Source: Pseudomonadales bacterium
GTDB taxonomy: Bacteria > Patescibacteriota > Microgenomatia > UBA1400 > PJMF01
Length of the DNA stretch: 64,000 nt
Reading direction: 5' to 3'
Assembly: GCA_020632255.1 (NCBI GenBank)
Contig: JACKFX010000006.1
Span: 13,399 to 77,398 of the forward strand
This document shows, one piece after another, positions 38,248 to 54,954 of this stretch (positions within the stretch are counted from its first letter, which is position 1; each line of letters opens with the position of its first letter). The translations under genes and the position numbers were made by a program. The notes beneath the pieces are model-generated. The model made no database searches. It was not told the origin of the DNA and was given only the letters and a program-made list of their open reading frames with translations.

Positions 38248-38318
38248 AGGGCCGTAGTTCAGCGGTAGAATAGAGGTCTCCAAAACCTTTGACGGGGGTT
38301 CGATTCCCTCCGGCCCTG
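38248..38318 (+). tRNA. tRNA-Trp (anticodon CCA).
   Basis: Cloverleaf: acceptor AGGGCCG/CGGCCCT, D-arm GTTC/GAAT, anticodon stem GAGGT/ACCTT with loop CTCCAAA, T-arm GGGGG-TTCGATT-CCCTC, discriminator G. It closely resembles bacterial tRNA-Trp. Confidence 0.9.
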
Positions 38319-38333
38319 CAAAATCCTATAATA

Positions 38334-38362
38334 TTGACTTTTGCGCTATTCATTGCTATAAT
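38334..38362 (+). promoter_or_regulatory. Consensus sigma70-like promoter downstream of tRNA-Trp. Likely the ancestral secE-nusG promoter, now separated from those genes.
   Basis: TTGACT, a 17-bp spacer, then TATAAT. Confidence 0.5.
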
Positions 38363-38409
38363 CACTGAAGTTTAAAATCATATTTTCTAGATCACAGGAG
38401 ATCAGATGA

Positions 38410-39150: not shown

Positions 39151-39222
39151 TTATGCTCCTGTACAAAATCTTTTATACAACCATTGCCTGAAACACGAAA
39201 ATATCTGCTACTACATTCTTGG

Positions 39223-39951
39223 CTATCTCTGAAACTTCTTGCTACAAAGATCTCGCTGTTTCACTTCTTTTTTTTTTGTTATTACACTGCTTTCCCCCAT
39301 ATCTTGGGTACCCAATTCTAGTAAATCAGTTTCTCCATGTCCCCCAACGAGTACTACATCTAAGTCTGTTTCTGGATATTCACTCTTTAAAAGTTTCATT
39401 CTCAAGTAGACATCAATACCGTTTCCTGCCTCAATGATATTGAAATTAAGCTTCTGTGATGCTCCTAAAAGTTCTGCAAAAGTTTCTTCATCTTCATAAA
39501 AAACACCGGCACGATCTGCATAAGGGTATATTAACGTGACGGTAGGAGCTGCAGGATCACGATTCAAAAATCTATGAAATACTTCAATAGGATATCTGCC
39601 AAAGTGACAAACACCATAATTGCTATGTATCTTTTCTAAAACCTCTGGTCCATACTGTTCTCTAAGAATAGAAATTGTTGTAACATTTCTTTCTAAATTA
39701 GAAATATCATAAGATAAACCTAATGCCCCCTTTTCCCATGCCTCAGCTAACAGATCTGCATCTAAGATGTCCGAACTAAATGGGACGGCATACACTTGTT
39801 TAATTAATTCTCTCTTTGCAGGTTGTGACAGAATTTGCATATAGTTATGTAAGACGTTAAGCACTGTTTCTTTATCTTCTTGTTCTCTTAAACGACTCAA
39901 AATTCTCAGTAGTCTTTGTTGAACCTCAACTCCACGATCACCTTCAAGCAT
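39223..39951 (-). CDS. Hypothetical protein (242 aa), island cargo.
   Basis: Clean ORF. No confident motif (VVLVGGHGETD noted). Confidence 0.4.
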   Translation of the reverse strand: MLEGDRGVEVQQRLLRILSRLREQEDKETVLNVLHNYMQILSQPAKRELIKQVYAVPFSSDILDADLLAEAWEKGALGLSYDISNLERNVTTISILREQYGPEVLEKIHSNYGVCHFGRYPIEVFHRFLNRDPAAPTVTLIYPYADRAGVFYEDEETFAELLGASQKLNFNIIEAGNGIDVYLRMKLLKSEYPETDLDVVLVGGHGETDLLELGTQDMGESSVITKKKEVKQRDLCSKKFQR

Positions 39952-40013
39952 AGGTTGAACAAATATTGGGGCATGTAATACTAGACTTGCTAATAACTCT
40001 TGATTATCAGCAA

Positions 40014-40481
40014 CTAAGGATTCAATTTTTGAGCTACAGCTGAACTGACATCAGAATCTAAATACCCGTACAAGTAATCAAGGATAGCTAAATACGATGG
40101 TATCAACTCAGTGTACTTTACTGGATCAAACAACACTAAATAATTAACATTAGACGACAAAATAGATTCTACTCTTTGAATAATTTCAAAACTAATATTA
40201 GAAGTCTGCAAATGAGCGGTGAGAATTGCTAGTGAAGGTACTAATTCTGTTAATAGCTCTGTATGTGCGAACGCAAACTTAATTTTATCTTGGTTTTTTT
40301 CTAAATATCTGCTTAAACCAGGTAAGACTTTTTCTGAACTTTGTGATGCTTGCAAGCTTCTAGATAACTCTGAAAGTTTGTTAACAATTTCTAATGACTG
40401 CTCCCATTGTTCGGAATGCAAATCATATCTACCATCTAAGGTCAAATCGTCTGCCGAATATCTTGTTTCTGTCATACACAA
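40014..40481 (-). CDS. Hypothetical protein (155 aa), island cargo.
   Basis: Clean ORF. It lies 62 nt from the next ORF in a different frame. Confidence 0.4.
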   Translation of the reverse strand: MCMTETRYSADDLTLDGRYDLHSEQWEQSLEIVNKLSELSRSLQASQSSEKVLPGLSRYLEKNQDKIKFAFAHTELLTELVPSLAILTAHLQTSNISFEIIQRVESILSSNVNYLVLFDPVKYTELIPSYLAILDYLYGYLDSDVSSAVAQKLNP

Positions 40482-40518
40482 ATCATACAGACACTTTCTG
40501 GATATTTCATCTCAAGAT

Positions 40519-40546
40519 AGGTTCTAACATCCTTCACTAGCCCCTG
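40519..40546 (+). repeat. Island direct repeat, copy 1 (tRNA-Trp 3'-end-like att/promoter-proximal motif).
   Basis: AGGTTCTAACATCCTTCACTAGCCCCTG, consensus aGGTTCTaACATCnTTCACTAgyCCCTGCA. Confidence 0.7.
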
Positions 40547-40619
40547 TATTTTTTATTTCTCTTGAATTTTAAAGGTGGCATCAACACATTACATCGTGTT
40601 TTTATACTATAATCTATTC

Positions 40620-41453
40620 ATGAACGACTTTTCGAAAAACGCTCCTCCTTCAGCAGATGTTTTGAAAGCATTTGGTATCTCAGATGAAGCTATTCTATTA
40701 CCTGGTGGCGAAGGCACATCATATCGAGCTGGAGATATTGTTCTTAAACCAACACAAAACAATGCTGAATCAGCCTGGATAGCTACTACGCTTTCCTCTA
40801 TCAATCAAGATGGTTTTAGAGTTACTCAGCAAGTAAAAACAACCACTGGAGAGTGGGTGTCTGATGGTTGGCAAGCATTTCGCTACTTAAAAGGAAAATA
40901 CATAAAAGGTAGATGGGAAGAAAAAATAGATATTTCCAGAAAATTTCACGGAGCACTCTCGACTATAGAAAAACCAAATTTTATCGGAACTAGACAAACA
41001 CCTTGGGAAGTTGCCGACTCAGAGATCTGGGGTAGTAATCAAATAACATTTGACCAGCAGCTACAAAAAGTGACCAATCCTCTTCTAGCTGTTAAACAAG
41101 ATATCTTTCCTACCGAGCAACTAATCCATGGAGACATAACAGGGAACATTCTATTTTCAGAGTCTCTGTCACCTGCAATTATCGATTTTTCTCCCTATTG
41201 GAGACCAGCGGAGTATGCAACAGCAATACTCATTGTTGATGCACTAGTTTGGGAGGGTGCTGCTGATTCATTATTTTCTAAACTTGAAAATACTTGGGTA
41301 AATAATCAATTGCTCATACGTGCTGCGCTATGGAGGATAAAAACTTCTGAACTATTCTCTCAGAGAAAACTGAAAGACTTAAAAAATGAGGCTAGTGCGT
41401 ATGCTCACTTTGTTGATGTGCTCTTAAAAAGAATTAGTCATGAAAGAAAATAG
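40620..41453 (+). CDS. Aminoglycoside/choline-kinase-like phosphotransferase (APH family) protein.
   Basis: ATP-binding Lys region GDIVLKP, catalytic LIHGDITGNILF (HGDxxxxN) and IIDFSPY (DFG-like). The ORF extends to 40575. Confidence 0.65.
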   Translation: MNDFSKNAPPSADVLKAFGISDEAILLPGGEGTSYRAGDIVLKPTQNNAESAWIATTLSSINQDGFRVTQQVKTTTGEWVSDGWQAFRYLKGKYIKGRWEEKIDISRKFHGALSTIEKPNFIGTRQTPWEVADSEIWGSNQITFDQQLQKVTNPLLAVKQDIFPTEQLIHGDITGNILFSESLSPAIIDFSPYWRPAEYATAILIVDALVWEGAADSLFSKLENTWVNNQLLIRAALWRIKTSELFSQRKLKDLKNEASAYAHFVDVLLKRISHERK

Positions 41454-41484
41454 GTTCTCACATCGTTCACTAACTAATCCTGCA
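41452..41484 (+). repeat. Island direct repeat, copy 2.
   Basis: AGGTTCTCACATCGTTCACTAACTAATCCTGCA, followed by TTGATA...TATATC promoter-like boxes. Confidence 0.65.
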
Positions 41485-41536
41485 AAAAAATAATCCCGAT
41501 ATTGATAACTTGAAATATTCTGCTATATCTTGAGAG

Positions 41537-42229
41537 ATGTCAAAAACTGAAAACAGTGTGTATGTTATTTCTTCAGTCAGGGGTGTCTCTGAACTAGAAA
41601 GAACAGAAATTGCGCAACATATAAGAAACTTGCGTCAGTCGGGAGAAGAAGTATTTGATCCGTATTTAGACGCACCTCAAACTGATACAAGCGGTCTTGC
41701 AATAATACTCGCAGAATTGAATTTCTTGGTAAAGCTGTCAGAGTCTAGTGATCTTGGAAGGGTTGATATTTTTTGGAATCATACAAGTGAGGGTTCAAGG
41801 GTAGATGTTGGGATGGCTATAGCCTTAAACCTAAGGATTAATCTGGTTAAAATTTTTAATGAGAATGAGAGCTCTTCTCCCCAACTTGTGTTGCGACTTA
41901 TTACCGAAATCTGTGAGCTTCAGGAAATGGGTAACTGGCCACCACAAAAACGAAAAGAAATTAGCCCTGATCTTGCCAAAACACTCAGATATTTAGATGA
42001 AATAAAAAACTCTGAGCAAATATCAATTAATTGGAATTCATTGGATTCAGAAGAAGCTGAATTTCAGAGATTAATCTTGGGTTTGTCGCTGGGGACAATG
42101 GGTAAAAGAAACAAAAATTTAAAAATAACAATAAGAGATGTTGATGGGTATGTTGACCCCGATGTAAAAAGTTATCCTAATGCAATTTCGGCACTAAATA
42201 CATTACTGACAACTGAAAATGGGTTCTAA
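41537..42229 (+). CDS. Hypothetical protein with an N-terminal TIR-like / nucleoside-deoxyribosyltransferase-like (flavodoxin-fold) region.
   Basis: SVYVISSVRGVSELERTEIAQHIRNLRQSGEEVFDPYLD resembles the TIR betaA-alphaA-betaB pattern (xVFISxRGxD...L...G..VFxD). This is tentative. Confidence 0.4.
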   Translation: MSKTENSVYVISSVRGVSELERTEIAQHIRNLRQSGEEVFDPYLDAPQTDTSGLAIILAELNFLVKLSESSDLGRVDIFWNHTSEGSRVDVGMAIALNLRINLVKIFNENESSSPQLVLRLITEICELQEMGNWPPQKRKEISPDLAKTLRYLDEIKNSEQISINWNSLDSEEAEFQRLILGLSLGTMGKRNKNLKITIRDVDGYVDPDVKSYPNAISALNTLLTTENGF

Positions 42230-42250
42230 CATCTTTCACTAGTCCCTGCA
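42221..42250 (+). repeat. Island direct repeat, copy 3; it overlaps the stop codon of the preceding gene.
   Basis: GGGTTCTAACATCTTTCACTAGTCCCTGCA. Confidence 0.7.
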
Positions 42251-42346
42251 GAGTCATGAAATACCCTATTTATCATCTTAATGTTTTAGATTTTTCTAGT
42301 AAAAATAGTATTCCATTTAAAGGTTCGCTGGTTTACAATTAATGCT

Positions 42347-43039
42347 ATGAATGAACAAAATACTTTTTTTGATACTGGTAGCCAACCTTTTGATATCTTA
42401 AGTCATATGAACATAATTGAACATATTCAGAAGAAGATGGAAAAATTCAATGTTTCTGAAAGAGCTGAGTGGTATAAAAATATATTAAAGCGCATGCTAG
42501 GTATTTTTGATGAAATGGATGGACAAAAAATCACCCTTGATATGCAACAATTGTTTGAGAAATTATACACTGAAACTGATTTAACTGGTACTTCTACGAA
42601 TTGTAATAATTCAATTATCGGCAATATTCAGCGAACTGGTAATGAGCAACTTCAAAAATGTTTTCTACTAGCTACGATTGAAGACGCGTCCAATGATACT
42701 AACTCAAAAAATCAATTTTCTCCTGATATTCCACAGTTAGATAAAAATGTGGTTAGACAAAATGCTCAGAATATGGGAGTTGTGCAGATGGAATTGCATA
42801 GGGTGCTAAGATATTGGTTAACTCCTTTATCACCAGAGAAGCGCAAAGATTACTTCAAGCGACTCTATCAATTGACAGATTTTGACGAGAATGAATCAGA
42901 TACAAAATCTAAAGAGCAATTAGTGAATACAAGTGGATCAACGTGTGCATATGAATTTCTTGTCGCCTGGCGTAGGTTTGGTAGTGAAACATTAAATAGC
43001 AAGCTAATTAATGTTATTGAATCTCCAAGTGATATTTAA
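42347..43039 (+). CDS. Hypothetical protein (230 aa), island cargo.
   Basis: Clean ORF, AT-rich codon usage distinct from the core genes. Confidence 0.4.
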   Translation: MNEQNTFFDTGSQPFDILSHMNIIEHIQKKMEKFNVSERAEWYKNILKRMLGIFDEMDGQKITLDMQQLFEKLYTETDLTGTSTNCNNSIIGNIQRTGNEQLQKCFLLATIEDASNDTNSKNQFSPDIPQLDKNVVRQNAQNMGVVQMELHRVLRYWLTPLSPEKRKDYFKRLYQLTDFDENESDTKSKEQLVNTSGSTCAYEFLVAWRRFGSETLNSKLINVIESPSDI

Positions 43040-43059
43040 TTTTCTTATCCAAAATAATT

Positions 43060-43292
43060 TCTTAAGAGTGAACAATCTCTTCGGCTACAAAAAGCCGGAG
43101 CTTCATGCATGAGGACTAATCGCCCTCAATACTTACTTTCGTAAGTATGCAAGACATTCTCATTTAGCCTCCGGCTTAAACTACGCTATTCATCCCTAGG
43201 CTTGAAACGTAGGGTTTTCTGTATTGGAGGAACAAAACGGTATTAAGCCCTCGAAGCTATGGGCTTAAATATCCGATTGCGCTTGATAGAAA
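43060..43292. ncRNA. Candidate structured noncoding RNA or DNA element (unknown class).
   Basis: Several nested helices visible by eye. AAGCCGGAG...CTCCGGCTT is a 9-bp long-range stem. Hairpins include CGGCT-ACAAAA-AGCCG, ATACTTAC-TTTC-GTAAGTAT, CCCTA-GGCTTGAAACG-TAGGG and AAGCCC-TCGAAGCTAT-GGGCTT. The region has no ORF. Confidence 0.35.
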
Positions 43293-43294
43293 CC

Positions 43295-43324
43295 GAGTTC
43301 TAACATCCTTCACTAATCCCTGCC
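43295..43324 (+). repeat. Island direct repeat, copy 4.
   Basis: GAGTTCTAACATCCTTCACTAATCCCTGCC. Confidence 0.7.
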
Positions 43325-43393
43325 GACCATGTGGTGATGAAATTACGAGTTACTCTTCCCAAGAAAAATAGTTTTAAAATATTCGAAAAAATC

Positions 43394-43837
43394 TCATTCT
43401 GGAAAAACAATTACATTGATTGGTCTAGCATCAGAAGCTATCAAATCTTCAATTCTTAATCCTGCTTGAATTGCGTTTAGACCTGATTTTATGGCATCAA
43501 AATGTATTAGGATCAATTTTAAATGCTCCTCATTTTGCAAGTCTATTGGATCTTTACGTGCTGGACTATCACCCCATGCCATACCTTTTAATGCAACTGA
43601 AACCGATCCAATCGCAAGCCTATTAGAAACAACTGCACTAAACTCGATTAACATAGTGTATGATCCTCCCTTAAAACACTCTTTTTGGGCTGTTATTTTC
43701 CCAACATGCATGTTGGCCGCTGGTTCTGCAGTTAGTTTTACGGTAAAGCCTGCATCTCCTAGCTTATCTTGTAGCCATTCTGCAGATTTCATGGCCATTG
43801 ATTCAGGACTGTGATCTGCGAACCTTTCATCAATCAT
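43394..43837 (-). CDS. Hypothetical protein (148 aa), island cargo.
   Basis: Start MIDERF has the RBS AAGGAAGAGAG. The ORF extends to 43951. Confidence 0.45.
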   Translation of the reverse strand: MIDERFADHSPESMAMKSAEWLQDKLGDAGFTVKLTAEPAANMHVGKITAQKECFKGGSYTMLIEFSAVVSNRLAIGSVSVALKGMAWGDSPARKDPIDLQNEEHLKLILIHFDAIKSGLNAIQAGLRIEDLIASDARPINVIVFPE

Positions 43838-44022
43838 ATGTGTTCTCTCTTCCTTTTTATATTTTATATGAAGAATAGGGTAATTAGAAATGAGTGTCAA
43901 GAATCCTAATTGGCTTATTTCATTATTGAATATGGGAAAATCCTCCCACATAAAAACCGTTACTTTTGGTAGCTTTCATACTATCGTCGTTTCATTGAGA
44001 GTTCTAGATCAAATAGTTATAT

Positions 44023-44052
44023 AGGTTCTCACATCATTAACTAGCCCCTGCA
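44023..44052 (+). repeat. Island direct repeat, copy 5.
   Basis: AGGTTCTCACATCATTAACTAGCCCCTGCA, followed by AAACCATAAG. Compare CCCTGCAAAATCCTATAA after tRNA-Trp. Confidence 0.7.
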
Positions 44053-44112
44053 AAACCATAAGTCCACTCTTCCCGCTTTACCAGAGTACATTCCGTGTGC
44101 TATTTTTAAGAT

Positions 44113-44580
44113 ATGAACGAAAACATCCCCACGCTTAAACAAGAAACCCTTGCATTTATGCGGAACATGCCGATTATGTCGGCAGCAATTAACGGCACTC
44201 CTCCTGTCTCGACAATTCTCCTCTTCGCGATTGATGATGATTTCACCATGTACTTTGCTGCCCTCAGCAACAGCTATAAAGCCAAAGCTCTCGAGAAAGA
44301 TTCAGGTTTTTCATTCTCAATTTGGGAACATGATAAGATGTATATACAAGCAAGTGGAAATGCACAGTTACTCCAAGATCCAGAAGAGATCGATGCTACA
44401 ATCGACAAACTAGCAACGGCAGCTTTGGGTATTGAAAACTTCTGGCCACCTGTTTTACAAATAAAAGGTCAGGATTATCAAGTCTATAGACTTGATCTTA
44501 ATTGGATTAGAATTCGCAGTCTTTCAGACAAAACACTTGTCGAAAAAACTAGTAAATTTGTGGAAGTACCCCTAAAATGA
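44113..44580 (+). CDS. Pyridoxamine 5'-phosphate oxidase-like FMN-binding split-barrel protein.
   Basis: LKQETLAFMRNMPIMSAAINGTPPVSTILLFAIDDDFTMYFAALSNSYKAKALEKD follows the PNPOx-like pattern. Confidence 0.6.
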   Translation: MNENIPTLKQETLAFMRNMPIMSAAINGTPPVSTILLFAIDDDFTMYFAALSNSYKAKALEKDSGFSFSIWEHDKMYIQASGNAQLLQDPEEIDATIDKLATAALGIENFWPPVLQIKGQDYQVYRLDLNWIRIRSLSDKTLVEKTSKFVEVPLK

Positions 44581-44945
44581 ACAAAAATCTCTTGATCGTT
44601 GAAGATGACCTATTTTTAGGTAAGCTGACTGTAAAAAAACTCGAAATGGAAGGCTTCACTGTCACTTTCCTCAACGACGGCAGTTCTGTCCATGACGAAG
44701 CAAAGCGACTACAACCAGCCGCAATCTTACTCGATATTATCATGCCAAACAAAGATGGTTTTGAGGCACTCTCAGAATTAAAAGGCGACGACGCGACCAA
44801 AAAAATTCCTGTGATCGTTCTGTCAGCACTCAGTGATGAGAAAGACAAGAAAAAAGCAAAAGACCTTGGAGCAGAGTCATTTTTTGTTAAATCTGACGTA
44901 GAACTTTCTGATATTGCTAAGTATGTTAAAAAAATTGCAAGCTGA
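44577..44945 (+). CDS. Stand-alone response-regulator receiver (CheY-like) domain protein.
   Basis: LLIVEDD, a phospho-acceptor Asp in LLDIIMP and a conserved Lys. There is a 4-nt ATGA overlap with the upstream gene. Confidence 0.75.
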   Translation: MNKNLLIVEDDLFLGKLTVKKLEMEGFTVTFLNDGSSVHDEAKRLQPAAILLDIIMPNKDGFEALSELKGDDATKKIPVIVLSALSDEKDKKKAKDLGAESFFVKSDVELSDIAKYVKKIAS

Positions 44946-45203
44946 TTAAATTTATCATACATTTTATACACTATTCACCAGACTTAGCTCTGTTTTGCAA
45001 ATCGGTGCTAAATGCTAGCTAAGTCTTTAATCTCTCATACATTTTTTGTATATGGTTGAACTAATGCGCTCTGATCATCAGATGTCACTGCCTCACGAAT
45101 TGCTTCAGTGGCATACATACGTCTACTAATCCTCTCTTCAATTGAGAGAAGCATACTACTATCGATTCTTTCTGTTTATCGTTAAAGCAGCTATACTGTT
45201 CCT

Positions 45204-46520
45204 ATGCCAGAACTTTTCGACCCCTTCCTCGTAAAAAGTCTCAAAGAGGACAAAGCGTATTTAGAGACAACTACCGTTCCAATCATCACTGTCTCTAGTA
45301 GTTATCGCGAAGACCTCAAAGAAATGCACGGCTTTCCTGCCAAAGATGACACCCCTGACATTGTTTTTTCTCGGGCCCACTACTCTATGGCTCTCGCAGT
45401 AGGTATGGCAGCATGGGGAAAGAAGATGGATCCAAAAAAGGCCTGGATTCTTGATCCAACTAACTATGTTTCAAAAAAGGACTGGGGTTCAATTGTCTTT
45501 ACTGAGGAAGTTGGTAAATTAATTGCACGACATGATGTACTAAAAACTCTTAAAGCTTTCATCGATAGGTTTGGTCGCAATAAACTTCCTATTTTGGAAA
45601 GCATCACTCCACCACTGTTGTATGTCACCGAAAAAATTTCAGGTCCAATTTTATCGTTCCACATTGCTGCTGGAAACATTTTAGCACCACTCGGAAAAAC
45701 AGTAGTACAAGTGATTACCGATCCGCATGTTCGTGATGAATATGTGACCAATGCTTTCCGCAAAAATATGTATTTTTGTGTCTTTGATGAGAACACGAAA
45801 ACAGAGTTCCTCGAGAAAGCCGCATTAATGGGGGTAAAAGCGGATCCAAAACGAGTTTTCGTTACCGGTGCCCCGATTGATCCACGAACACTTGCAGCAA
45901 AACAAAAAAAGAACCCCTATCGTAGTGGTGTTCTCAAACTGTGTCTCACAACCGGCGGACTCGGAACGAACAAACGCGAACTATTGGAAGTAGTTGAACA
46001 ACTCTTACCCGAACTGCGCAAACAAAATCGCAGTTTGGGATTGGTTGTGTACTGCGCAACCCACGAAGACATTTATAAAGAAGTGGTAAAACTCGCGAAA
46101 GAAAAGCGCGTTGCAGTGGGTGCAGAAACAGACAAATCAGCCGCACTTCGTGTGCTCTATCATCCTCAAATCGTGGATGCAAATGAGAAACTTCAACAAC
46201 TTGCATTCCCTTGGGCACACGGCTTCATTACCAAACCTTCTGGAGACATGGCGTATGATGCCGCAGCATCTGGAAGCTTTGTGCTCACTCTCGATGAGTG
46301 GGGACCTTGGGAAGTGCATATCCGAGAAATATTCGAACAGAAACAAATTAGTCGCAGACTCGTACTCGAATCAGTTGTTCCTCAACTTGAAAGTTTGCGC
46401 AGCGCCAAAGGTCAACAACGTTCCTGGATTGAGCAAGCTATGCTCAATGCCGATGCGCTACCAAGCGCGCTTACCCATGGCGCAAAGCATATTGTTGAGG
46501 TGGTAAAAAATGTTAGTTAA
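45204..46520 (+). CDS. GT-B glycosyltransferase-like protein (MurG/MGDG-synthase/UgtP-like GT28 C-terminal domain).
   Basis: FITKPSGDMAYDAAASGSFVL resembles the ITKPGGxTxxEALAxGxPMI box of GT28 enzymes. Assignment is by eye only. Confidence 0.45.
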   Translation: MPELFDPFLVKSLKEDKAYLETTTVPIITVSSSYREDLKEMHGFPAKDDTPDIVFSRAHYSMALAVGMAAWGKKMDPKKAWILDPTNYVSKKDWGSIVFTEEVGKLIARHDVLKTLKAFIDRFGRNKLPILESITPPLLYVTEKISGPILSFHIAAGNILAPLGKTVVQVITDPHVRDEYVTNAFRKNMYFCVFDENTKTEFLEKAALMGVKADPKRVFVTGAPIDPRTLAAKQKKNPYRSGVLKLCLTTGGLGTNKRELLEVVEQLLPELRKQNRSLGLVVYCATHEDIYKEVVKLAKEKRVAVGAETDKSAALRVLYHPQIVDANEKLQQLAFPWAHGFITKPSGDMAYDAAASGSFVLTLDEWGPWEVHIREIFEQKQISRRLVLESVVPQLESLRSAKGQQRSWIEQAMLNADALPSALTHGAKHIVEVVKNVS

Positions 46521-46789: not shown

Positions 46790-47026
46790 ATCTACTTTCT
46801 GTATCTTAATTCAAGATGAGTATAAACGTTTTACAAGATAAAAATAGTTATAATTTTGCATATATTTGTGAGTTTTTGAAGGCTCATTTGTATGATAGTA
46901 GCCGTAGCTACTTGATTACAAATGGAACGCTCAAAAACGCCAAATAGATGTAAAAGAATGCTATTTTTTATTTTGCAAGGCGTTTATTATATCAAAGTTA
47001 TTAGGCTTAGTAAATAAGCCTTTGTG

Positions 47027-47100
47027 AGCCACCTCGGGGATTCGAACCCCGGACCTACGGTTTACAAAACCGTCGCTCTAACCAGCTGAGCTAAGGTGGC
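47027..47100 (-). tRNA. tRNA-Thr (anticodon TGT).
   Basis: The reverse complement folds with acceptor GCCACCT/AGGTGGC, anticodon stem ACGGT/ACCGT, loop TTTGTAA and T-loop TTCGAAT. Confidence 0.85.
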
Positions 47101-47127
47101 AACTGTACCTCCTGCCAAAAAGCAGGG

Positions 47128-47209
47128 TGCCAGGTGTAGGATTCGAACCTACGAAGGCTGAGCCAACAGATTTACAGTCTGTCCTCGTTGACCACTTGAG
47201 TAACCTGGC
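47128..47209 (-). tRNA. tRNA-Tyr (anticodon GTA), class II with a long variable arm.
   Basis: Acceptor GCCAGGT/ACCTGGC, 3-bp D-stem, anticodon loop CTGTAAA, variable arm TGGCTCAGCCTTC, T-arm GTAGG-TTCGAAT-CCTAC, discriminator A. Confidence 0.85.
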
Positions 47210-47291
47210 ACTATGTTTTGTTAAGAACGGTACAAATTATATCCTGAATCTAGAAACTAAACCAGACTAAGAACCCGATTCGCACATCGTG

Positions 47292-47363
47292 AGCCGAAGA
47301 CGGGAATCGAACCCGTGACCCCCATCTTACCAAGATGGTGCTCTACCACTGAGCCACTTCGGC
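47292..47363 (-). tRNA. tRNA-Thr (anticodon GGT).
   Basis: Acceptor GCCGAAG/CTTCGGC, anticodon stem CCATC/GATGG, loop TTGGTAA and T-loop TTCGATT. Confidence 0.85.
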
Positions 47364-47545: not shown

Positions 47546-48364
47546 CTACGAACGAAGCTCAACTGGCCAGAATTGATCTCTAGCCATTACACTGAACTCA
47601 ATTCCTCTTGATGCAGACACAACTTTGAACTCCCCAACTGGGTCATAGGTGTCGCCATCCGGCCACAGCACTGGCTCTTGTCCAAATGCTCCAGCCAAAA
47701 AAATCAGTAAGTCTACTGGATTTGGTGTAAGTAAGTCAAAATGGATTTTTTCTGGTGCATCAACTTTTCCAGGAAAAAATTGGTGTTCAACATACACAAC
47801 CCCATTGGGTGCCCTGCCATCGACAATATCAACTGGCAAGTACAAACGTTGGTGATCATCAGCCGGCCTATTTAATATATCTGTCTGATTCTGCCGTGCA
47901 TATGCAATAGCCGCATCCCACATCGCATCCTCACTACCATGTCGATATCCGACATGGTGAAGACTAACGTCATTCAGCATTGCATACACTAAAGTAGCAG
48001 CAATCACACGATCAACCTCTTGAGGAAGTCCTGAAATAGCAGCTGCCAAATCATCAAATAAGACACCCCCCATCCAACCATATGATTTAACATAATCCTG
48101 GAAAGGCGTAACAGCAAAGCGATTAGTCTGTCGCTCTCTCGAGGCGACAATCAGCTCTCCAAACTTTCCATAGGCAATACCCGATACAGTAGGATCACTA
48201 AGTGATCCTCCCAAAGGTTGCCCAATGGCGATCGTCCCAAGTTGCTCATCAATGTACCCCAGTACCCCGTATGAAACGGGAAATGCTGGGTGTCCAAAAA
48301 CTTGCAACATTTGAAAAAGTAAATCTCCCAGATCAATACCTCGTTGTAACTCTTTTGTATCCAT
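47546..48364 (-). CDS. Hypothetical protein (273 aa).
   Basis: The start MDTKEL is preceded by GGAGG. The ORF extends to 48595, with a possible signal-peptide-like MTKGLLYILLLF start. Confidence 0.45.
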   Translation of the reverse strand: MDTKELQRGIDLGDLLFQMLQVFGHPAFPVSYGVLGYIDEQLGTIAIGQPLGGSLSDPTVSGIAYGKFGELIVASRERQTNRFAVTPFQDYVKSYGWMGGVLFDDLAAAISGLPQEVDRVIAATLVYAMLNDVSLHHVGYRHGSEDAMWDAAIAYARQNQTDILNRPADDHQRLYLPVDIVDGRAPNGVVYVEHQFFPGKVDAPEKIHFDLLTPNPVDLLIFLAGAFGQEPVLWPDGDTYDPVGEFKVVSASRGIEFSVMARDQFWPVELRS

Positions 48365-48744
48365 GGTTCCTCCATTTGGATATAGCTTGATTTGAAATAA
48401 ATTAACGAATAACAGCAAAATGTATAACAAGCCTTTTGTCATACTTTCACTGCAAGTGCTGTATTGTAGCATAAAAAGAATGATGCAGAGGGAAATAAAG
48501 TAAACAAAAACAGCCCTGCGTGAGAGGTGAACGATTCCCGGAGGAACCAAGTGGGTAGGAAGCACACTACTCCTCGGAGCAGAGCGACAATCCATAACCC
48601 GTTTATGAAGTGTTCAGGAAAACTCTTCAACCTCTCACGCAGGGCTGTCTTTTAATGTTCTAGATTCCTTTCGGAATTTCGTTCAGTTGTATCTTAAGTA
48701 TACAACAGTTCTTTTCAACTCAAAATATGAGTAAAGACCTCACT

Positions 48745-49629
48745 TTAGCTCAGTTCTTTGACCCACTCTGATACCTTTTCTCCATATTTTTCTTGATCGA
48801 GGACAAACTTTAGATGAGCTTTGAAGTAGTTTTCTGGATCACCAGTAGTCATCCACTCTCCTTTAGTTTTACCAACTAAGATTCGCTTGGTTTTAGCAAC
48901 TTGGGTAATTGCATCTACTGTCCAAAGTTCATTGTCTTTTCCAGTATTACTTGGAACGAGATACTGCATCACATCTGGAGTCAATAAGTAGCGACCGTAT
49001 GAGCCTAGGCGAGATGGTTCTGTTCCTTTGTTTGGTTTTTCAACAATATAGTCAAGATCTGTACTCGAATCTGCTTTAAATTTTATGATTCCATACTTAT
49101 GTACCACATCTAAACTAACTTCTTGAGACATGATAATTCCAGAAACATCTGGATTGGCTTCATACAAATCTACCATTGTCTTAGCATCTCGTTGAGCGCC
49201 AAAAATAATGTCATCACTATACATAACCAAGAAAGCTTCCTCCCCATCAATAAATCGTTGAGCTGATGCCACTGGAGAGCCATTCCCATATGGTAAACTT
49301 TCATCCTGAGTAATCACCACAATTTTTGGAAAATCCAACACATGTTGGACTGGCTCGTAGCGATCCTCTTTTCCCTGTGCTGCCAGTTGTTTACGAATAC
49401 GGTTTACATTGTTATTAAAGTAGTCTTCATACACTGGCTTGCCCTCTGGAGTAGCCACAATAATAATTTCTTCAATGCCCGCTTCAGCACACTCTTCAAC
49501 GATAAACTGCATAATTGGCTTGTTTCCGAGAGGAAGCATACCTTTTGGTACTGTCTTGGTGATTGGCAGATAACGACTCGCGAAACCAGCGTCAGTTATG
49601 ATCGCTTTTCTAACTCGTTTTTCGTGCAT
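48745..49629 (-). CDS. Second GalU-type UTP--glucose-1-phosphate uridylyltransferase paralog.
   Basis: ITDAGFASRYLPITKTVPKGMLPL is the same family motif as the 7333-8184 gene, but the sequence is divergent. Confidence 0.75.
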   Translation of the reverse strand: MHEKRVRKAIITDAGFASRYLPITKTVPKGMLPLGNKPIMQFIVEECAEAGIEEIIIVATPEGKPVYEDYFNNNVNRIRKQLAAQGKEDRYEPVQHVLDFPKIVVITQDESLPYGNGSPVASAQRFIDGEEAFLVMYSDDIIFGAQRDAKTMVDLYEANPDVSGIIMSQEVSLDVVHKYGIIKFKADSSTDLDYIVEKPNKGTEPSRLGSYGRYLLTPDVMQYLVPSNTGKDNELWTVDAITQVAKTKRILVGKTKGEWMTTGDPENYFKAHLKFVLDQEKYGEKVSEWVKELS

Positions 49630-49881
49630 AAGATCTCCTTAGTGATCGTTGTACTATTCGTATACGTCTATTGTACACGGTTTGATGAGTAAAGTTGAAA
49701 ACCAAGTTTTTAGCCTGGAGCATCATGTTTCAATGCTCTAAACATCACACTTTTTCATACATTGTAGCATTTTTTTGTCTATTCCACTCATTTTTTAAGC
49801 ACAACTTGATTAAATTGCTCAAAAATTCAGACTAAACATTCCTAAAAAAATCAGGTAGTATGTATGTGAGCATACTAACTA

Positions 49882-50859
49882 GTGCGCACATTTATGGCAA
49901 AACATCCACAGCAAACCTCTCCTCTTCAGACCCTGATGCAAGCTACCAGTGATTTTCTAGTTGGCTTTAGTGTCTTCTTGATTATTTCTGGTTTAATTGG
50001 AACTGTGTTTGTGCTTCAAGACTTACAAGAGAATACGTCTCAAGATGTCCGTTCAGATGCAAGTACTGCCACACCACAAGTAGAAATTGCGACAACCGAG
50101 CCGATCTGCCAAACGCTCGATGTCTGTCTTTCCGAAGCCATCGAAGGTCAAACTCAATCTTGTAGTCCTACAGAAATATGTGAAATCCCTCCAGGTTGTT
50201 ACCTCGAAACGATTAGCTGCTTCAGAGAACCATGTGACGTAGATCCTCAAGTTGTTATCTGTCCAGAAAGACTTGATGATATCTTCTTCGCAGATATCAC
50301 AGAACTCGACTCACCTCGCTTCTACACAGATGAAGCCATGACACAAGAAGTATCAGAAGAAAGCCTTGAAGAAGGCAATCGCTACTTCATCAAATCACAA
50401 ATTGAGGTACAAAATGTGGTCAAAAATAGTCTGCCTTCGGACCTTTCTTTTAGTATACGAATGAAAGTTAATGAATCACTTGACTCAGTGAAGCTAGCAA
50501 AATACAACATGCTAACTGAACACCGTGACGGCTACGCCGATATTCTTTCGGGACCTTTTACCGCTAAAAGAAACAACATCGTTGCCTACGAAGTTGGTTC
50601 ACATGATAATAATGGCAACATCCTCATCCCAGAAACAAATTACGACAACAACAAACACCTACACACCTTTTCCGCACAAGCTTGTGCAAACAATCCAGAT
50701 TTAAATAATGATAACAAAGTCGATCTTCGAGACTTCTCCATTCTCAGCCGAGAATTCTTCAAAACAGGCACTAACACTCCAGCAGATATCAACTGTGATG
50801 GAACCGTCAATATTCTTGATTACTCGATCTTAGCAACCAACTTTAGTGTCACAAAATAA
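49882..50859 (+). CDS. Membrane-anchored/secreted protein with a C-terminal type-I dockerin-like module.
   Basis: N-terminal TM/signal segment. The C-terminus has two calcium-binding-loop repeats: DLNNDNKVDLRDFSIL... and DINCDGTVNILDYSILATNF. Confidence 0.6.
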   Translation: MRTFMAKHPQQTSPLQTLMQATSDFLVGFSVFLIISGLIGTVFVLQDLQENTSQDVRSDASTATPQVEIATTEPICQTLDVCLSEAIEGQTQSCSPTEICEIPPGCYLETISCFREPCDVDPQVVICPERLDDIFFADITELDSPRFYTDEAMTQEVSEESLEEGNRYFIKSQIEVQNVVKNSLPSDLSFSIRMKVNESLDSVKLAKYNMLTEHRDGYADILSGPFTAKRNNIVAYEVGSHDNNGNILIPETNYDNNKHLHTFSAQACANNPDLNNDNKVDLRDFSILSREFFKTGTNTPADINCDGTVNILDYSILATNFSVTK

Positions 50860-50870
50860 AGGTACAAAGC

Positions 50871-52598
50871 ATGAAAAAAACAACTCGCTCATTCTTACAA
50901 AAACCTTCTACAACTGGAGTTCTCATTGGGGTATTGGTAGTTGCCTTTAGTGTCGTCGGATTACTCTTAGTCCAAACTCCGCTTGAGCAACCTCAAGACG
51001 TACGTCGTCAAGCTTCTATTGATAGAGGTCAAGTAACTGTTTCACATAGTGTTCAGCCAAGTGAGCTGTCTGTTGGCCAAACCAATACAGTCATGCTTTC
51101 AGTCAATACTGCAGGCGTACCCACTGACGGTATTCAAGTTCTTTTCAATGTCGTCACCGACACCTTCGACAGTATGACCGCAGATATTGTTACTGATGGC
51201 GGTCTTCAAGCTGCAGGAACACAAATTGAGCGCACTCAAGATGGCTTCTTGGTTCAAGCACTCGCCCTACCTGCCACAATTGGGCAACCATTTGTAACTA
51301 CTGGAGATATCTCACTTGTTTTTCTTAGGATGAGCTTCACCCCCACAAAATCCGGCACAATTGCCTTTAACTTTGACCGAGAGGAATCGATCTCCATTCT
51401 CCATGGGAGCAATCCCCTCGAGGACAAACTTAACCATATCAGCCCCTTCACTTTGACTGTCACCGAGGACGGTGATCCCGAAACTTCATCATCTCCATCT
51501 CCGACAGTAACTCCAACTCCCACCCCATCACCTTCTCCATCGCCAGATGCAGTTGGTGGTATTCAAGTTGTAAGTTGTAATCAAGAATGTTCAAGCAATG
51601 CCGAGTGTAGTGTCAATCAACGCTGTTACAACGTTGACGGCACAAACCGCTGTCGCTTAGCAGTCAATCCAACTAACGATCGATGTATTACTGCCGACGT
51701 TGGACCAAACTACAGCTGTAACCACGGTTGTGCAGACACAAATGAGTGTGTAGCTGGTCTTACTTGCTGGTACAACCAATGTCGAAACCCACTTAATGTC
51801 GAAAGCACCAGCTGTGCTGAATTAACACAAACCCAAACTGAAAGTCTTGCTGCTAATTGTAACGCCAGTTGTGAAAGCAATAACGATTGTGACATCAACC
51901 TACGTTGCTACAACGGAGCATGCCGCTTGGTAACTAACCCAAGTAGTTCGACCTGTAGCGCAGCAACTTCTAAAACCATTTCATCTGTTTACTCTACTCC
52001 AAAAGGTGGAGCTCCATCAGAAATCATGGAAAAAACAGATTCGACTAAAACTGCGACCTCAGCAGCAAACGATTCTCCATCGCCTGTAACGACACCACTG
52101 CCAGCTACTGAAGTCACTGAAGAAACCACGACTGGCATGACACTTGAAGACACTCCAGTTTCAGAAAACGAAACTGCACTCGACGTGTTGATGACGATGA
52201 TGAAGAGTCCAGACTCTGCGCTGCCACTCATTATCATCGGATCTGGTATTGGGTTGCTTATCCTGTCTCTAATCATTATTGGCGTGCGCCACATGACAGG
52301 TGGCAGCGCAAGTCCTGCCCCAAGCCGCACTGCAACACCAACCACCACACCAACCCCAAAGCCACAGCCGGTTGTCAACCGCACTGACTTGGGTACGCCA
52401 TTAACAACAGCACGCAACATGACTACTCCAACTGCAAGTATGCCAACCCAGCACAGCCTGCAAACGCAGTCAGTTGCTGCACAAGGCATGCCTCCAGCTG
52501 CCACCCAACCAAGTGCAAGTGGCCAATCAAGCATGCTGCAACGTATGAAGGATAAAGGAATTTCTGCACCACAGACACCTTCCAAGACACAAAAATAA
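50871..52598 (+). CDS. Surface protein with an N-terminal signal anchor, a cohesin-like beta domain, a Pro/Thr linker, three 6-Cys repeats, a TM helix and a P/T/Q-rich tail.
   Basis: The cohesin-like block is TVMLSVNTAGVPTDGIQVLFNV...ISLVFLRMSFTPTKSGTIAFNFD. The repeats are CNQECSSNAEC...C, CNHGCADTNEC...C and CNASCESNNDC...C. The TM helix is LPLIIIGSGIGLLILSLIIIGV. Confidence 0.45.
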   Translation: MKKTTRSFLQKPSTTGVLIGVLVVAFSVVGLLLVQTPLEQPQDVRRQASIDRGQVTVSHSVQPSELSVGQTNTVMLSVNTAGVPTDGIQVLFNVVTDTFDSMTADIVTDGGLQAAGTQIERTQDGFLVQALALPATIGQPFVTTGDISLVFLRMSFTPTKSGTIAFNFDREESISILHGSNPLEDKLNHISPFTLTVTEDGDPETSSSPSPTVTPTPTPSPSPSPDAVGGIQVVSCNQECSSNAECSVNQRCYNVDGTNRCRLAVNPTNDRCITADVGPNYSCNHGCADTNECVAGLTCWYNQCRNPLNVESTSCAELTQTQTESLAANCNASCESNNDCDINLRCYNGACRLVTNPSSSTCSAATSKTISSVYSTPKGGAPSEIMEKTDSTKTATSAANDSPSPVTTPLPATEVTEETTTGMTLEDTPVSENETALDVLMTMMKSPDSALPLIIIGSGIGLLILSLIIIGVRHMTGGSASPAPSRTATPTTTPTPKPQPVVNRTDLGTPLTTARNMTTPTASMPTQHSLQTQSVAAQGMPPAATQPSASGQSSMLQRMKDKGISAPQTPSKTQK

Positions 52599-52843
52599 TC
52601 AGAAAAAACTCCCTAAAAAGTGGTAAAAAAGATCGTGAAGTTAGGGTATTTCAAAAATCGATGTTATTTGTTACAATACTTGCCTATGAACTCACTGCAA
52701 AACTCCAATCAGTTTACTTTTAGTTCTATTTTGGCACAACAAGTTTTTTCTTCTTTCTCAAGTAGTCAAAACTACTATCGGCATCAGAAAAAACTGTTCT
52801 GCTCAAAATATACTCAAAAATTAAATCTTACTGGAGTTTCACA

Positions 52844-53029
52844 ATGAGTTCGTTCAAACCTGCACAGTACTTTAAAGAAGTTGCTCGCGAAGTCAAGAAA
52901 GTTTCTTGGCCATCTAGAGAACAAACACAAGAAAAGACACTGCTCGTGCTTACCGTCAGTATTATTATTGGATTGTACATCGGTGTACTCGACTTTGTGT
53001 TCTCAAAGTTACTCGCAGCTTTGGTCTAA
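52844..53029 (+). CDS. secE: Preprotein translocase subunit SecE.
   Basis: 61 aa with a single C-terminal TM helix, KEVAREVKKVSWPSREQ, positioned before nusG. Confidence 0.8.
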   Translation: MSSFKPAQYFKEVAREVKKVSWPSREQTQEKTLLVLTVSIIIGLYIGVLDFVFSKLLAALV

Positions 53030-53088
53030 AAATTACAGGAAAAAATTGGTATATACAACTGCCCAAGTAGGTTGGCACGAAAAAAATT

Positions 53089-53700
53089 ATGACAGACAAC
53101 ACACCAACACCACCAGAAGTTCAAGAAGTTAAGATCCAAACCCCAAACTTGATCAAGGTTTCTGACGCTGAAAACCGTAAAGCTCGCTGGTATGTCGTTC
53201 ACGCCTACTCTGGTCACGAAAACAAAGTTGCTGAAGCACTCAAACAACGTGCAGAAACTCTCAACTTGACCGATAAAATCCTCGGAATCCTCATTCCAAC
53301 TCAAGAAAAAATTCAAATTAAGCGCGGAAACCGCAAGACAGTCAGTGAAAAAATCTTCCCAGGATACATGCTGGTGCAGATGGAACTCACTGACGACTCA
53401 TGGTTAGCTGTTCGCACTACTCAAGGTGTGACAGGCTTTGTCGGTGTTGGTAACAAGCCAACTGCCCTTCCAAAACACGAAGTTAAAGCAATCATGAAGT
53501 ACATGACTCAGGCTGCTCCATCATACAAGGCAGATTATGTCGAAGGTGAAGCTATCCGTATCGTCGATGGTCCTTTCAACGACTTCCTCGGTACTGTCAA
53601 CTCTATCAACGAAGAAAAGGGTCAAGTTGAAGTCTTGGTCAACATCTTTGGTCGCGAAACCCCAGTGGTTCTCGACTTCTTACAAGTAAAGAAAGTATAA
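53089..53700 (+). CDS. nusG: Transcription termination/antitermination factor NusG.
   Basis: NGN domain (WYVVHAYSGHENKV) and KOW motif (GEAIRIVDGPFNDFLGTV). Confidence 0.9.
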   Translation: MTDNTPTPPEVQEVKIQTPNLIKVSDAENRKARWYVVHAYSGHENKVAEALKQRAETLNLTDKILGILIPTQEKIQIKRGNRKTVSEKIFPGYMLVQMELTDDSWLAVRTTQGVTGFVGVGNKPTALPKHEVKAIMKYMTQAAPSYKADYVEGEAIRIVDGPFNDFLGTVNSINEEKGQVEVLVNIFGRETPVVLDFLQVKKV

Positions 53701-53741
53701 GCACTCCATAACAGGACAGAAATAAAACGGAAACACGTATT

Positions 53742-54167
53742 ATGGCAAAAAAAATAATTAACATCCTCAAACTCAACCTCCCAGCTGGTACTGCAACTCC
53801 AGCTCCTCCAGTTGGACCTATTCTTGGTCAGGCTGGTATCAACATGATGGACTTCTTGAAGCAATACAACGCTGCCACTCAAGATAAAAAAGGTCAAACC
53901 ATCCCTGCTGAAATCACTGTCTATGCAGACCGTTCATTTACTTTTGAACTCAAGCTGCCTCCAGTTTCAGCTATGATCAAGCAAGCACTCAAACTCAAAG
54001 CTGGTAGTTCTACTACTGGTCGCCAGGTTGTCGGAACTCTCACTCAAGCCCAGCTTCGTGAGATCGCTACCGAAAAACTTCCAGACCTCAATACCAACGA
54101 TGTTGAAGCAGCTATGAAAACTGTTGCCGGTGCTGCTCGCAGTATGGGTGTTAAAATTGCTGAGTAA
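53742..54167 (+). CDS. rplK: 50S ribosomal protein L11.
   Basis: PAGTATPAPPVGPILGQAGINMMDF motif. Confidence 0.95.
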   Translation: MAKKIINILKLNLPAGTATPAPPVGPILGQAGINMMDFLKQYNAATQDKKGQTIPAEITVYADRSFTFELKLPPVSAMIKQALKLKAGSSTTGRQVVGTLTQAQLREIATEKLPDLNTNDVEAAMKTVAGAARSMGVKIAE

Positions 54168-54240
54168 GCAACGTCTTACTCACCCAAAATTGTATATTAG
54201 TAGTTACTTATACCCCGCTTAGACGGAATTAAGGAGATAT

Positions 54241-54954
54241 ATGGGATCAAAGAAAAATGTCGACATGTCTCAGTCAGAAACTGAAGTCAAGATAGTCGAA
54301 TCTACCCAACCAGAAGAAGAAGGAACTGTTACCGAAACTTCAGTTGCAGCTCCAAAAAAAGAAACTCGTGGTCGCAGCAAGAAGTATGTTGCTGTTCGCT
54401 CACAAGTCGATAAAACTAAGGTCTACGACCCGTTTTCAGCTATCGAGTTAGTTAAGAAGCTCTCTTACAGTGCTTTCGACGGAACTATTACCGTTGACGC
54501 AGTCCTTAGAGAAGTTGGAGCAGTTGGGAAACTCACCCTTCCTCACTCAACCGGCAAATCTGTAAAGGTTGCCATCGTTGATGACGCTCTCATTGCTGAG
54601 ATTGAGGCAGGAAACATCGACTTCGATTTTCTCGTCACTACTCCACAGTTCATGCCAAAATTGGCTAAACACGCTCGTGTGTTAGGTCCTCGTGGATTAA
54701 TGCCAAATCCTAAAAACGGAACTGTCACTGGTAACCCAGAACAAAAGAAAGCTGACCTCGAAAAAGGTGAACTTACCATTAAAACTGAGAAAAAGCGCCC
54801 CGTTATTCACGTAACAATTGGAAAAGTCTCTCAAGACACCAAAGAACTCGTTGAAAACTACAAGGCACTTATCAAGTTCCTCGGAATCAAAGTAACTAAA
54901 ACAACCATTTCAGCTACGATGAGCCCTGGTGTAAAGATTGATTTTAAAGGCTAA
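54241..54954 (+). CDS. rplA: 50S ribosomal protein L1.
   Basis: The pattern is typical of L1, with an N-terminal extension. Confidence 0.9.
   Translation: MGSKKNVDMSQSETEVKIVESTQPEEEGTVTETSVAAPKKETRGRSKKYVAVRSQVDKTKVYDPFSAIELVKKLSYSAFDGTITVDAVLREVGAVGKLTLPHSTGKSVKVAIVDDALIAEIEAGNIDFDFLVTTPQFMPKLAKHARVLGPRGLMPNPKNGTVTGNPEQKKADLEKGELTIKTEKKRPVIHVTIGKVSQDTKELVENYKALIKFLGIKVTKTTISATMSPGVKIDFKG

Follow-up and report, generated by a model that had tools for sequence, protein, structure and literature searches.

Cell-surface organization and partner-cell attachment are largely obscure in the candidate phyla radiation (CPR, or Patescibacteria), and most envelope proteins of these organisms are annotated as hypothetical. 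Here we ask what is encoded by two adjacent genes of this kind, and whether their products form a cohesin-dockerin pair at the cell surface. The genes lie in a stretch of 64,000 nucleotides (nt), hereafter the window, from contig JACKFX010000006.1 of assembly GCA_020632255.1 (positions 13,399 to 77,398 of the forward strand). A preliminary description of this DNA had noted a dockerin-bearing protein next to a Cys-rich surface protein with a cohesin-like domain, and had read the two as a cognate pair. We call the first protein DocP (gene at 49882-50859) and the second, a cohesin-fold, Cys-rich membrane protein of 575 amino acids (aa), CohP (gene at 50871-52598); both genes are on the plus strand. 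Our analysis favors the reading that DocP and CohP form a transmembrane (TM)-anchored, non-cellulosomal cohesin-dockerin surface display module, which we consider fairly probable, physical binding being inferred.

Two adjacent genes with a short spacer

Both open reading frames (ORFs) are present as first described. They are separated by only 11 nt (aggtacaaagc, 50860-50870, plus strand), and this spacing indicates a putative operon from which DocP and CohP would be co-transcribed. A scan of 49500-53200 for promoters and terminators gave counts equal to the shuffled expectation and nothing informative. The original length of DocP, 325 aa counted from GTG 49882, is probably too long. A start at ATG 49894, yielding 321 aa, is more likely, because an identical GenBank record (MCB9801377.1) has 321 aa, a 98%-identical GenBank model likewise starts at the equivalent ATG (MAKHPQQ..., 321 aa), and the sequence context agrees. 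That record and the one identical to CohP (MCB9801378.1) belong to a 79.5-kb contig of a metagenome-assembled genome (locus tags H6773_04300 and H6773_04305) and are both annotated 'hypothetical protein'.

DocP ends in a dockerin

The C-terminus of DocP contains two 22-residue calcium-loop/helix repeats (residues 273-294 and 302-321, 50698-50844, plus strand), which start 29 residues apart. The repeats quoted in the preliminary description are found there, at residues 273-288 and 302-321. Pfam Dockerin_1 (PF00404) matched residues 273-318 with an E-value of 7.7e-8 (32.9 bits, the gathering cutoff being 22.9), as a single stretch running over both repeats (model positions 3-53 of 57). The best sequence matches in the PDB are also dockerins, led by 2y3n_B (E-value 5e-4) and followed by 4fl4, 2jnk, 2mte and 1daq. 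Both repeats, DLNNDNKVDLRD... and DINCDGTVNILD..., have D1, N3, D5, D/N9 and D12, and in each the calcium loop is followed by a hydrophobic helix pattern. Judged by its sequence, the C-terminus of DocP is a genuine dockerin.

Two cysteines are invariant in 10 homologs of DocP: C268 (50683-50685), which precedes the first calcium loop of the dockerin, and C305 (50794-50796), which occupies position 4 of the second. A disulfide between them could clamp the dockerin. The second cysteine is also retained in many distant dockerins (DLNCDG).

Dockerin repeats are related to EF-hands, and weak sub-threshold EF-hand matches occur in two relatives of DocP, so that the repeats might instead be generic EF-hand-like calcium loops that stabilize a surface protein and bind no partner. 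However, the Pfam scan matched no EF-hand family to DocP at E ≤ 1, whereas Dockerin_1, the sole match, exceeded its gathering score and extended across both repeats. Every ortholog also keeps the repeats at its very C-terminal end, with regular spacing, and the agreement between repeats at position 11, described below, indicates a selected surface. We therefore hold generic calcium loops to be extremely unlikely, and the earlier assignment of the repeats to the dockerins stands.

The N-terminal domain of CohP has a cohesin fold

The fold of the N-terminal domain of CohP had been set beforehand as the test of the cohesin-like assignment, and the predicted structure bears that assignment out. 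The domain (residues ~53-199, 51027-51467, plus strand) contains no Cys. From a domain alignment of 25 sequences, AlphaFold2 (AF2) predicted a nine-stranded β-sandwich with a mean predicted local distance difference test score (pLDDT) of 92.3 and a predicted template modeling score (pTM) of 0.85. When this model was compared with the PDB using Foldseek, 63 matches were obtained at E ≤ 1e-3. Cohesins made up about 45 of the top 50, covering types I, II and III as well as the non-cellulosomal cohesins of Clostridium perfringens. The top match was the C. perfringens cohesin 2vo8 (E-value 1.6e-6, template modeling score 0.70). Other cohesin matches were 2jh2 (C. perfringens), 6kgd (C. acetobutylicum CohA2), 1anu and 1ohz (C. 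thermocellum), C. thermocellum OlpA/OlpC, Ruminococcus flavefaciens ScaC and ScaE, and type II cohesins.

On the strength of this model, the N-terminal domain of CohP is a cohesin-fold domain whose sequence family current libraries do not recognize; homology to the cohesins is plausible but unproven. Conserved residues among the 169 family members are A48, G53, T80, G87, Q89, F92, G162, D169, S173, D185 and L187, and conservation clusters on predicted strands 3 and 8 (G87, Q89, F92, G162, F168 and D169). In the model, this distribution is compatible with dockerin binding through the 8-3-6-5 sheet.

The few fold matches outside the cohesins were 9ifr (CLIPPER/CnaA-like), 8gsy (the N-domain of the pilin CppB), AvmM, YcnI and an integrin domain. 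The presence of 9ifr (E-value 8e-6, within the top ten) and 8gsy among the top matches favors a second reading of the domain, as a CnaA-like or CLIPPER (DUF11) isopeptide-stabilized stalk domain of the kind found in fibrillar adhesins and pilins, with no socket. CLIPPER domains are likewise nine-stranded sandwiches of surface proteins, and they rely on a Lys-Asn isopeptide bond (PMC12617251). However, just two of the top 50 fold matches are of the CLIPPER/CnaA type, and neither CohP nor 55 of its relatives gave a DUF11/CLIPPER match in Pfam. The domain is single-copy and always N-terminal, without the tandem repeats of CLIPPER proteins, and the Lys/Asn/Asp triad is lacking: no Lys or Asn is conserved among the 169 members, and the domain in the window has only two Lys, neither of them in the first strand. 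Since the isopeptide needs a Lys-Asn pair and none is conserved, we rejected this reading, which we regard as very improbable.

Architecture of CohP and DocP

The remaining parts of CohP, all on the plus strand, agree with the earlier description of a signal-anchored protein with a Pro/Thr linker, three 6-Cys modules, a TM helix and a P/T/Q-rich tail, each of which is seen in the sequence. A basic stretch (MKKTTRSFLQK) precedes an N-terminal hydrophobic helix (residues 16-34, 50916-50972), after which comes the motif QDVRRQA (residues 42-48, 50994-51014), in which A48 is present in 100%, R45 in 87% and Q42 in 83% of the 169 members. Beyond the cohesin-fold domain, a Pro/Thr/Ser linker (residues 206-225, 51486-51545) leads to the three 6-Cys modules (residues 236-362, 51576-51956). 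These modules, at 236-272, 283-315 and 330-362, hold the 18 Cys that are the exact total in CohP, all invariant in 25 homologs. They show a weak DUF7107-like signal (E-value 0.59), which is significant in relatives. A Ser/Thr-rich spacer separates them from the second TM helix (residues 451-472, 52221-52286), which is conserved in the alignment, and the protein ends in a T/P/S/A/Q-rich tail of 103 aa (52287-52595) that is predicted to be cytoplasmic. Full-length CohP matched no Pfam or NCBIfam family, SLH, carbohydrate-binding module (CBM) and glycoside-hydrolase families included, and its isolated domains likewise gave no Pfam match at E ≤ 10.

Basic residues precede the first helix and follow the second, and because of this we suggest that both ends of CohP are cytoplasmic, with residues 36-450 outside the cell. 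Near its end the tail carries a conserved motif, SSMLQRMKDKGI (52527-52562, residues 553-564), which is kept as SSMLxRxKxKGI(xPP) in homologs with only 30-40% overall identity. Such conservation suggests an intracellular partner.

DocP also starts with a hydrophobic helix (residues 25-45, 49954-50016, plus strand, as read from the sequence; residues 14-49 in the AF2 prediction), which is a putative signal anchor or uncleaved signal peptide. It is followed by the juxtamembrane motif QDVRSDA (residues 54-60, 50041-50061, plus strand), common to CohP, and by a Cys-rich segment (residues 76-127, 50107-50262, plus strand) with 8 Cys that are invariant in 10 homologs. Between this segment and the dockerin lies an Ig-like β-sandwich, the cargo (residues ~135-265, 50284-50676, plus strand). 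AF2 gave a pLDDT of 76-93 over most of the sandwich and a mean of just 63 for DocP as a whole. The best Foldseek match of the sandwich was 3idu_B (E-value 4.4e-4), a CARDB domain. As CARDB is the nearest solved fold, the cargo appears to be an Ig-like, adhesin-type module, not an enzyme.

A constant socket and swappable cargo in related genomes

We compared the locus with related genomes in a GTDB-wide scan, using a 9-sequence alignment as the query, and recovered 25 distinct loci, 24 of them labeled as different genomes (loci are given below as L followed by a number). CohP homologs have its entire architecture. Searching 1.84 billion cluster representatives with the family profile, we found at least 571 clusters (50% identity) at E ≤ 1e-3. 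Each of the 150 representatives listed has one copy of the cohesin-fold domain, located N-terminally, and in nearly all of them it lies at residues ~40-210.

The gene order is a 438-aa ORF, a variable region, a divergent galU-like gene, zero to two dockerin genes, the cohesin-fold gene, and then secE, nusG, rplK and rplA. In the window, the galU-like nucleotidyltransferase gene is at 48745-49629 (minus strand), and secE, nusG, rplK and rplA occupy 52844-54954 (plus strand). Every sufficiently long locus keeps this order except L030, where additional dockerin genes close the locus; the part of the neighborhood that varies is the one from the 438-aa ORF to the galU-like gene. The pair thus belongs to a conserved core neighborhood. 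The preliminary description had placed it inside a rearranged island, which we reject because the block from the galU-like gene to rplA is syntenic across the 25 loci, in every one that is long enough.

Dockerins in the loci were called using a locally built hidden Markov model (HMM) and confirmed independently by Pfam. A gene with a C-terminal dockerin lies immediately upstream of the CohP ortholog in 17 of the 23 species loci with an intact upstream region, which answers positively the question of whether the pair co-occurs in related genomes. Among the 528 ORFs (≥100 aa) of all loci, dockerins are confined to this block. The dockerin proteins of related loci range from 125 to 611 aa with the dockerin at the extreme C-terminus, and all carry an N-terminal export signal, a classical signal peptide in several species. 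Their cargos vary: CARDB-like with a Cys-rich segment in the clade of the window, Beta_helix/DUF1565 in L016, Peptidase_M64-like in L021, and a Pro/Thr linker alone in L032. A docking system would be expected to show just this pattern, with a constant socket beside cargos that are exchanged but keep the dockerin tag.

Two loci depart from the simple two-gene form. L028 (3558-9017) has three consecutive genes that each start with the helix, Q-D-x-R-x-x-A and a cohesin-fold domain, and the second of them (5100-6125, 341 aa) has a dockerin at its end as well, resembling an adaptor scaffoldin; this arrangement hints at a multi-tier assembly in that species. Dockerin_1 is also present in 5 of 55 distant members of the cohesin-fold family. 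In L030 (9047-13264), the place of secE-nusG after the cohesin-fold gene is taken by three more dockerin genes. One of their products has a SASA (sialate O-acetylesterase-like) domain, and the second repeat of these downstream dockerins is cut short (...IFDYNELVNNYGK), without a complete calcium loop.

Matching recognition positions in the dockerin repeats

Positions 10 and 11 of type I dockerins are reportedly the main cohesin-recognition residues, as Pagès and colleagues (in 1997) and Carvalho and colleagues (in 2003 and 2007) are said to have found, and the duplication of these positions in the two repeats is said by the same authors to underlie a dual binding mode. The repeats start 27-33 residues apart in 25 of 26 dockerin proteins (29 residues in 19 of them; 45 in L031). 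Among 16 non-redundant dockerins, position 11 differs across lineages (R, S, L, M, A and others) and is identical between the two repeats of one protein in 9, against 2.9 expected (p ~3e-4). Neighboring positions show little or no such repeat-matching signal, and position 10 shows none. Across the family, the matching at position 11 points to a binding surface with two-fold symmetry that is under selection, and away from generic calcium loops.

We also compared the trees of the domains. In a mirror-tree analysis, the cohesin-fold domain and the dockerin correlated with a partial r of 0.47-0.52 (p 2e-4) when distances in NusG and L11 were controlled for. The Cys modules and the dockerin gave an r of 0.54, no weaker than for the cohesin-fold domain. 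As the Cys modules correlate equally with the dockerin, we dropped the mirror-tree signal as evidence of a specific interface.

Weighing the cohesin-dockerin reading

The reading of DocP and CohP as a cognate pair is supported by the fold, the dockerin and the adjacency of the genes. It is not supported by cohesin membership at the sequence level, and this is the first of several findings that weigh against it. Of the two profile checks proposed for the pair, the dockerin profile matched and the cohesin profile never did: Pfam Cohesin (PF00963) failed to match full-length CohP, the isolated domain (E ≤ 10) or any of 55 relatives. The CohP family profile retrieved no cohesin from the PDB sequences, and hhalign against a CipA-type cohesin profile gave a probability of 0.3%, a weak negative given that the profile is narrow (effective number of sequences, Neff, 1.7). 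The fold matches are moderate (template modeling scores of 0.45-0.70, 9-18% identity) and include the few non-cohesins named above. On the side of DocP, the AF2 model of the dockerin region, built from a 10-sequence alignment, has helices at 282-295 and 311-314 at a low pLDDT of ~44, and position 11 is asymmetric between the two repeats (R283 versus L312, preceded by L282 and I311 at position 10), because of which the dockerin of DocP may bind in a single orientation only. An adjacent dockerin gene is absent from 6 of the 23 loci (L015, L018, L019, L020, L024 and L026), and from L008 in addition. One complete genome without the adjacent gene is BOKR01000001.1. To these points are added the correlation of the Cys modules with the dockerin and the possibility that both proteins may stay membrane-anchored, if their N-terminal helices are uncleaved.

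Some of these observations favor a different explanation, in which DocP and CohP are two co-regulated surface proteins that do not bind through cohesin and dockerin, their adjacency reflecting shared export or regulation. The cohesin-fold domain would then be an adhesive or structural tip, and the dockerin would bind a glycan, the Cys modules, a host protein or another receptor. This explanation accommodates the absence of any link to cohesins in sequence profiles. It also fits with the dockerin covarying as strongly with the Cys modules as with the cohesin-fold domain, and with the retention of CohP in six or seven related loci that have no dockerin gene beside it. The N-terminal helix and QDxRxxA motif shared by both proteins suggest a common export route, and Wang et al. 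raised the speculation that host glycans are the target of a dockerin protein from a Saccharibacterium (PMC10633639). On the other hand, the structures nearest to CohP in fold belong to cohesins in particular, rather than to CBMs or generic Ig domains. The dockerin is kept while the cargo varies, always beside the cohesin-fold gene, and some proteins combine a cohesin-fold domain with a dockerin in the manner of an adaptor. The symmetric signature at the recognition position is also typical of cohesin-binding dockerins. We consider co-regulation without such binding unlikely, although serious enough to be kept in view.

A weaker test speaks for the cohesin-dockerin reading: loci without an adjacent dockerin gene have more divergent cohesin-fold domains (median HMM score of 77 versus 199, Mann-Whitney p 0.002), a comparison that is uncorrected for phylogeny, in which the dockerin-less loci may form one clade, and that uses an HMM trained mostly on dockerin-bearing lineages.

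A shared N-terminal motif and a model of display

Both CohP and DocP have a hydrophobic N-terminal helix followed, 6-9 residues on, by Q-D-x-R-x-x-A. We screened the 528 ORFs of the related loci for this combination and found it only in the cohesin-fold family, the closest relatives of DocP and a truncated ORF (L030:13302-13667). The M64-like dockerin protein (L021:3554-5389) also has Q-D-x-R-x-x-A. Helix and motif together may be a lineage-specific sorting or processing signal; an Arg three residues ahead of the invariant Ala is atypical for signal peptidase I sites. Cleavage of the helices would turn CohP into a type I membrane protein with the cohesin at its far end, and DocP into a soluble cargo protein. 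If the helices were left uncleaved, DocP and CohP would both be tethered and would interact in cis on one membrane.

Under the cohesin-dockerin reading, we propose that CohP would serve as an anchoring scaffoldin of minimal form, inserted in the membrane with a cytoplasmic N-terminus. Outside the cell it would expose one cohesin-fold domain, followed by the Pro/Thr linker, the three disulfide-rich 6-Cys modules and the Ser/Thr-rich spacer, while the second TM helix would keep it in the membrane and leave the conserved tail in the cytoplasm. DocP would be exported, bearing its Cys-rich segment, the CARDB-like Ig-fold cargo and the calcium-binding C-terminal dockerin. By plugging into the cohesin-fold domain of CohP in a calcium-dependent manner, the dockerin would display the cargo at the cell surface. 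Related species would use the same socket with exchanged cargo: a β-helix, an M64-like peptidase, no more than a linker, or more than one cargo together. Attachment to a host cell, as raised in the preliminary description, is speculation.

A wider proposal is that the module is a Patescibacteria lineage-wide display system next to housekeeping genes. It would comprise an unrecognized cohesin family (at least 571 clusters) with a TM anchor and a disulfide-rich stalk, encoded upstream of secE-nusG, and interchangeable dockerin cargos (Ig adhesin-like, peptidase and β-helix) for host contact or feeding, all routed by a novel signal for sorting or processing that consists of the N-terminal helix and Q-D-x-R-x-x-A. 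We put this forward tentatively, as a possibility that is doubtful in its full extent.

Genomic surroundings and the identity of the organism

In the 64 kb of the window, no second dockerin or cohesin-fold domain was found beyond those of DocP and CohP. Downstream, 245 bp of non-coding DNA separate CohP from secE (52599-52843), with no tRNA and no other notable feature noticed in this gap. Upstream, the galU-like gene had been called a second galU paralog, and this is borne out by 34% identity to the window ORF at 7333-8184; it scores 191 bits with TIGR01099, under the cutoff of that model. A further neighbor, the 349-aa ORF at 47546-48595, had been called glycosyltransferase-like, a label not upheld by the Pfam and NCBIfam searches, in which it had no match. 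Its homologs are confined to L001 and L012, the nearest two of the loci (36-39% identity), and a tRNA cluster on the minus strand (Thr-TGT, Tyr-GTA and Thr-GGT, 47026-47363) adjoins it.

GC content falls to 0.35-0.40 over ~38-46 kb (38248-46000), compared with 0.42-0.45 elsewhere. This stretch lies directly downstream of a tRNA-Trp gene (38248-38319), is separate from the dockerin/cohesin block, and may be an integrated island.

By gene content, synteny and the closest GTDB representative, the organism is a member of the Patescibacteria/CPR. That representative is a 'Candidatus Pacebacteria' metagenome-assembled genome (MAG) of the phylum Minisyncoccota. Near-identical GenBank copies of the pair carry the label 'Candidatus Woesebacteria bacterium'. 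Other records have titles of a Proteobacteria type, namely 'uncultured Pseudomonadales' (L011, L014, L015, L019, L020, L022, L026, L031 and L033), 'Vitreimonas sp.' (L032) and 'Pseudomonadales bacterium' (MCB9801378.1). The contigs with such titles have a Patescibacteria-type gene order and proteins, with NusG 76-90% identical to that of the window, and these bins are probably mislabeled or contaminated.

Relation to known systems and significance

Two known systems are closest in function. One is the non-cellulosomal pairs of C. perfringens glycoside hydrolases and toxins (2vo8, 2jh2, 2ozn/2jnk and 2w1n), which provided the top fold match of CohP (2vo8) and one of the sequence matches of the DocP dockerin (2jnk). 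In those pairs, one cohesin and one dockerin bring non-cellulolytic extracellular proteins together, as we infer for DocP and CohP. The C. perfringens modules are sequence-recognizable and belong to large secreted enzymes, whereas the CohP domain is invisible to Pfam and sits at the N-terminus of a Cys-stalked protein with two TM helices, and its partner DocP carries a small CARDB-like cargo. The other system is the anchoring scaffoldins (OlpA, OlpC and SdbA of C. thermocellum and ScaE of R. flavefaciens; 3ul4, 4dh2 and 2zf9), in which one or a few surface-held cohesins capture dockerin-tagged proteins. Structures of anchoring scaffoldins occur among the fold matches of CohP, and its relatives show swappable cargo and a cohesin-dockerin adaptor. 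Anchoring differs, by SLH or sortase in the scaffoldins and by a TM helix in CohP. A Cys-rich stalk, a conserved cytoplasmic tail and non-cellulolytic cargo set the CohP module apart from both the C. perfringens pairs and the scaffoldins.

The module also does not have the properties of a cellulosome: CohP is anchored by a TM helix, the cargo in the window is CARDB-like, and the cargos of relatives are not cellulases. Unlike cellulosome loci, the window has no cellulases or CBM3, the organism is a CPR bacterium whose genome is reduced, and the genes are fixed beside secE-nusG.

Cohesin and dockerin annotations have been reported in CPR organisms before, which we count in favor of the cohesin-dockerin reading. 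Cohesin- and dockerin-annotated proteins were detected by metaproteomics in a MAG of Ca. Shapirobacterales (Microgenomates) (bioRxiv 10.1101/2021.08.21.457207), and in the cultivated Saccharibacterium Southlakia epibionticum an envelope protein with a dockerin domain is essential (PMC10633639). These reports resemble ours at the level of domain annotation, which they interpreted in terms of a cellulosome or glycan binding, and they contain no dockerin-cohesin operon, fixed site upstream of secE, Cys-rich TM architecture or variable cargo. In the literature that we searched, we found no description of the DocP-CohP operon or of the cohesin-fold family.

We regard the finding as a testable lead on CPR surface biology and on an annotation gap, and not as a new principle. 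If the proposed module is real, its two small domains would offer a direct experimental handle for studying calcium-dependent binding, and a search for the dockerin tag would list the surface-displayed cargo of each species. Hundreds of hypothetical proteins could likewise be annotated by rule, and the cohesin family would gain a group of sequences that escapes present profile libraries. The two-gene plug and socket would then be a conserved core feature of one Patescibacterial lineage, traceable by synteny.

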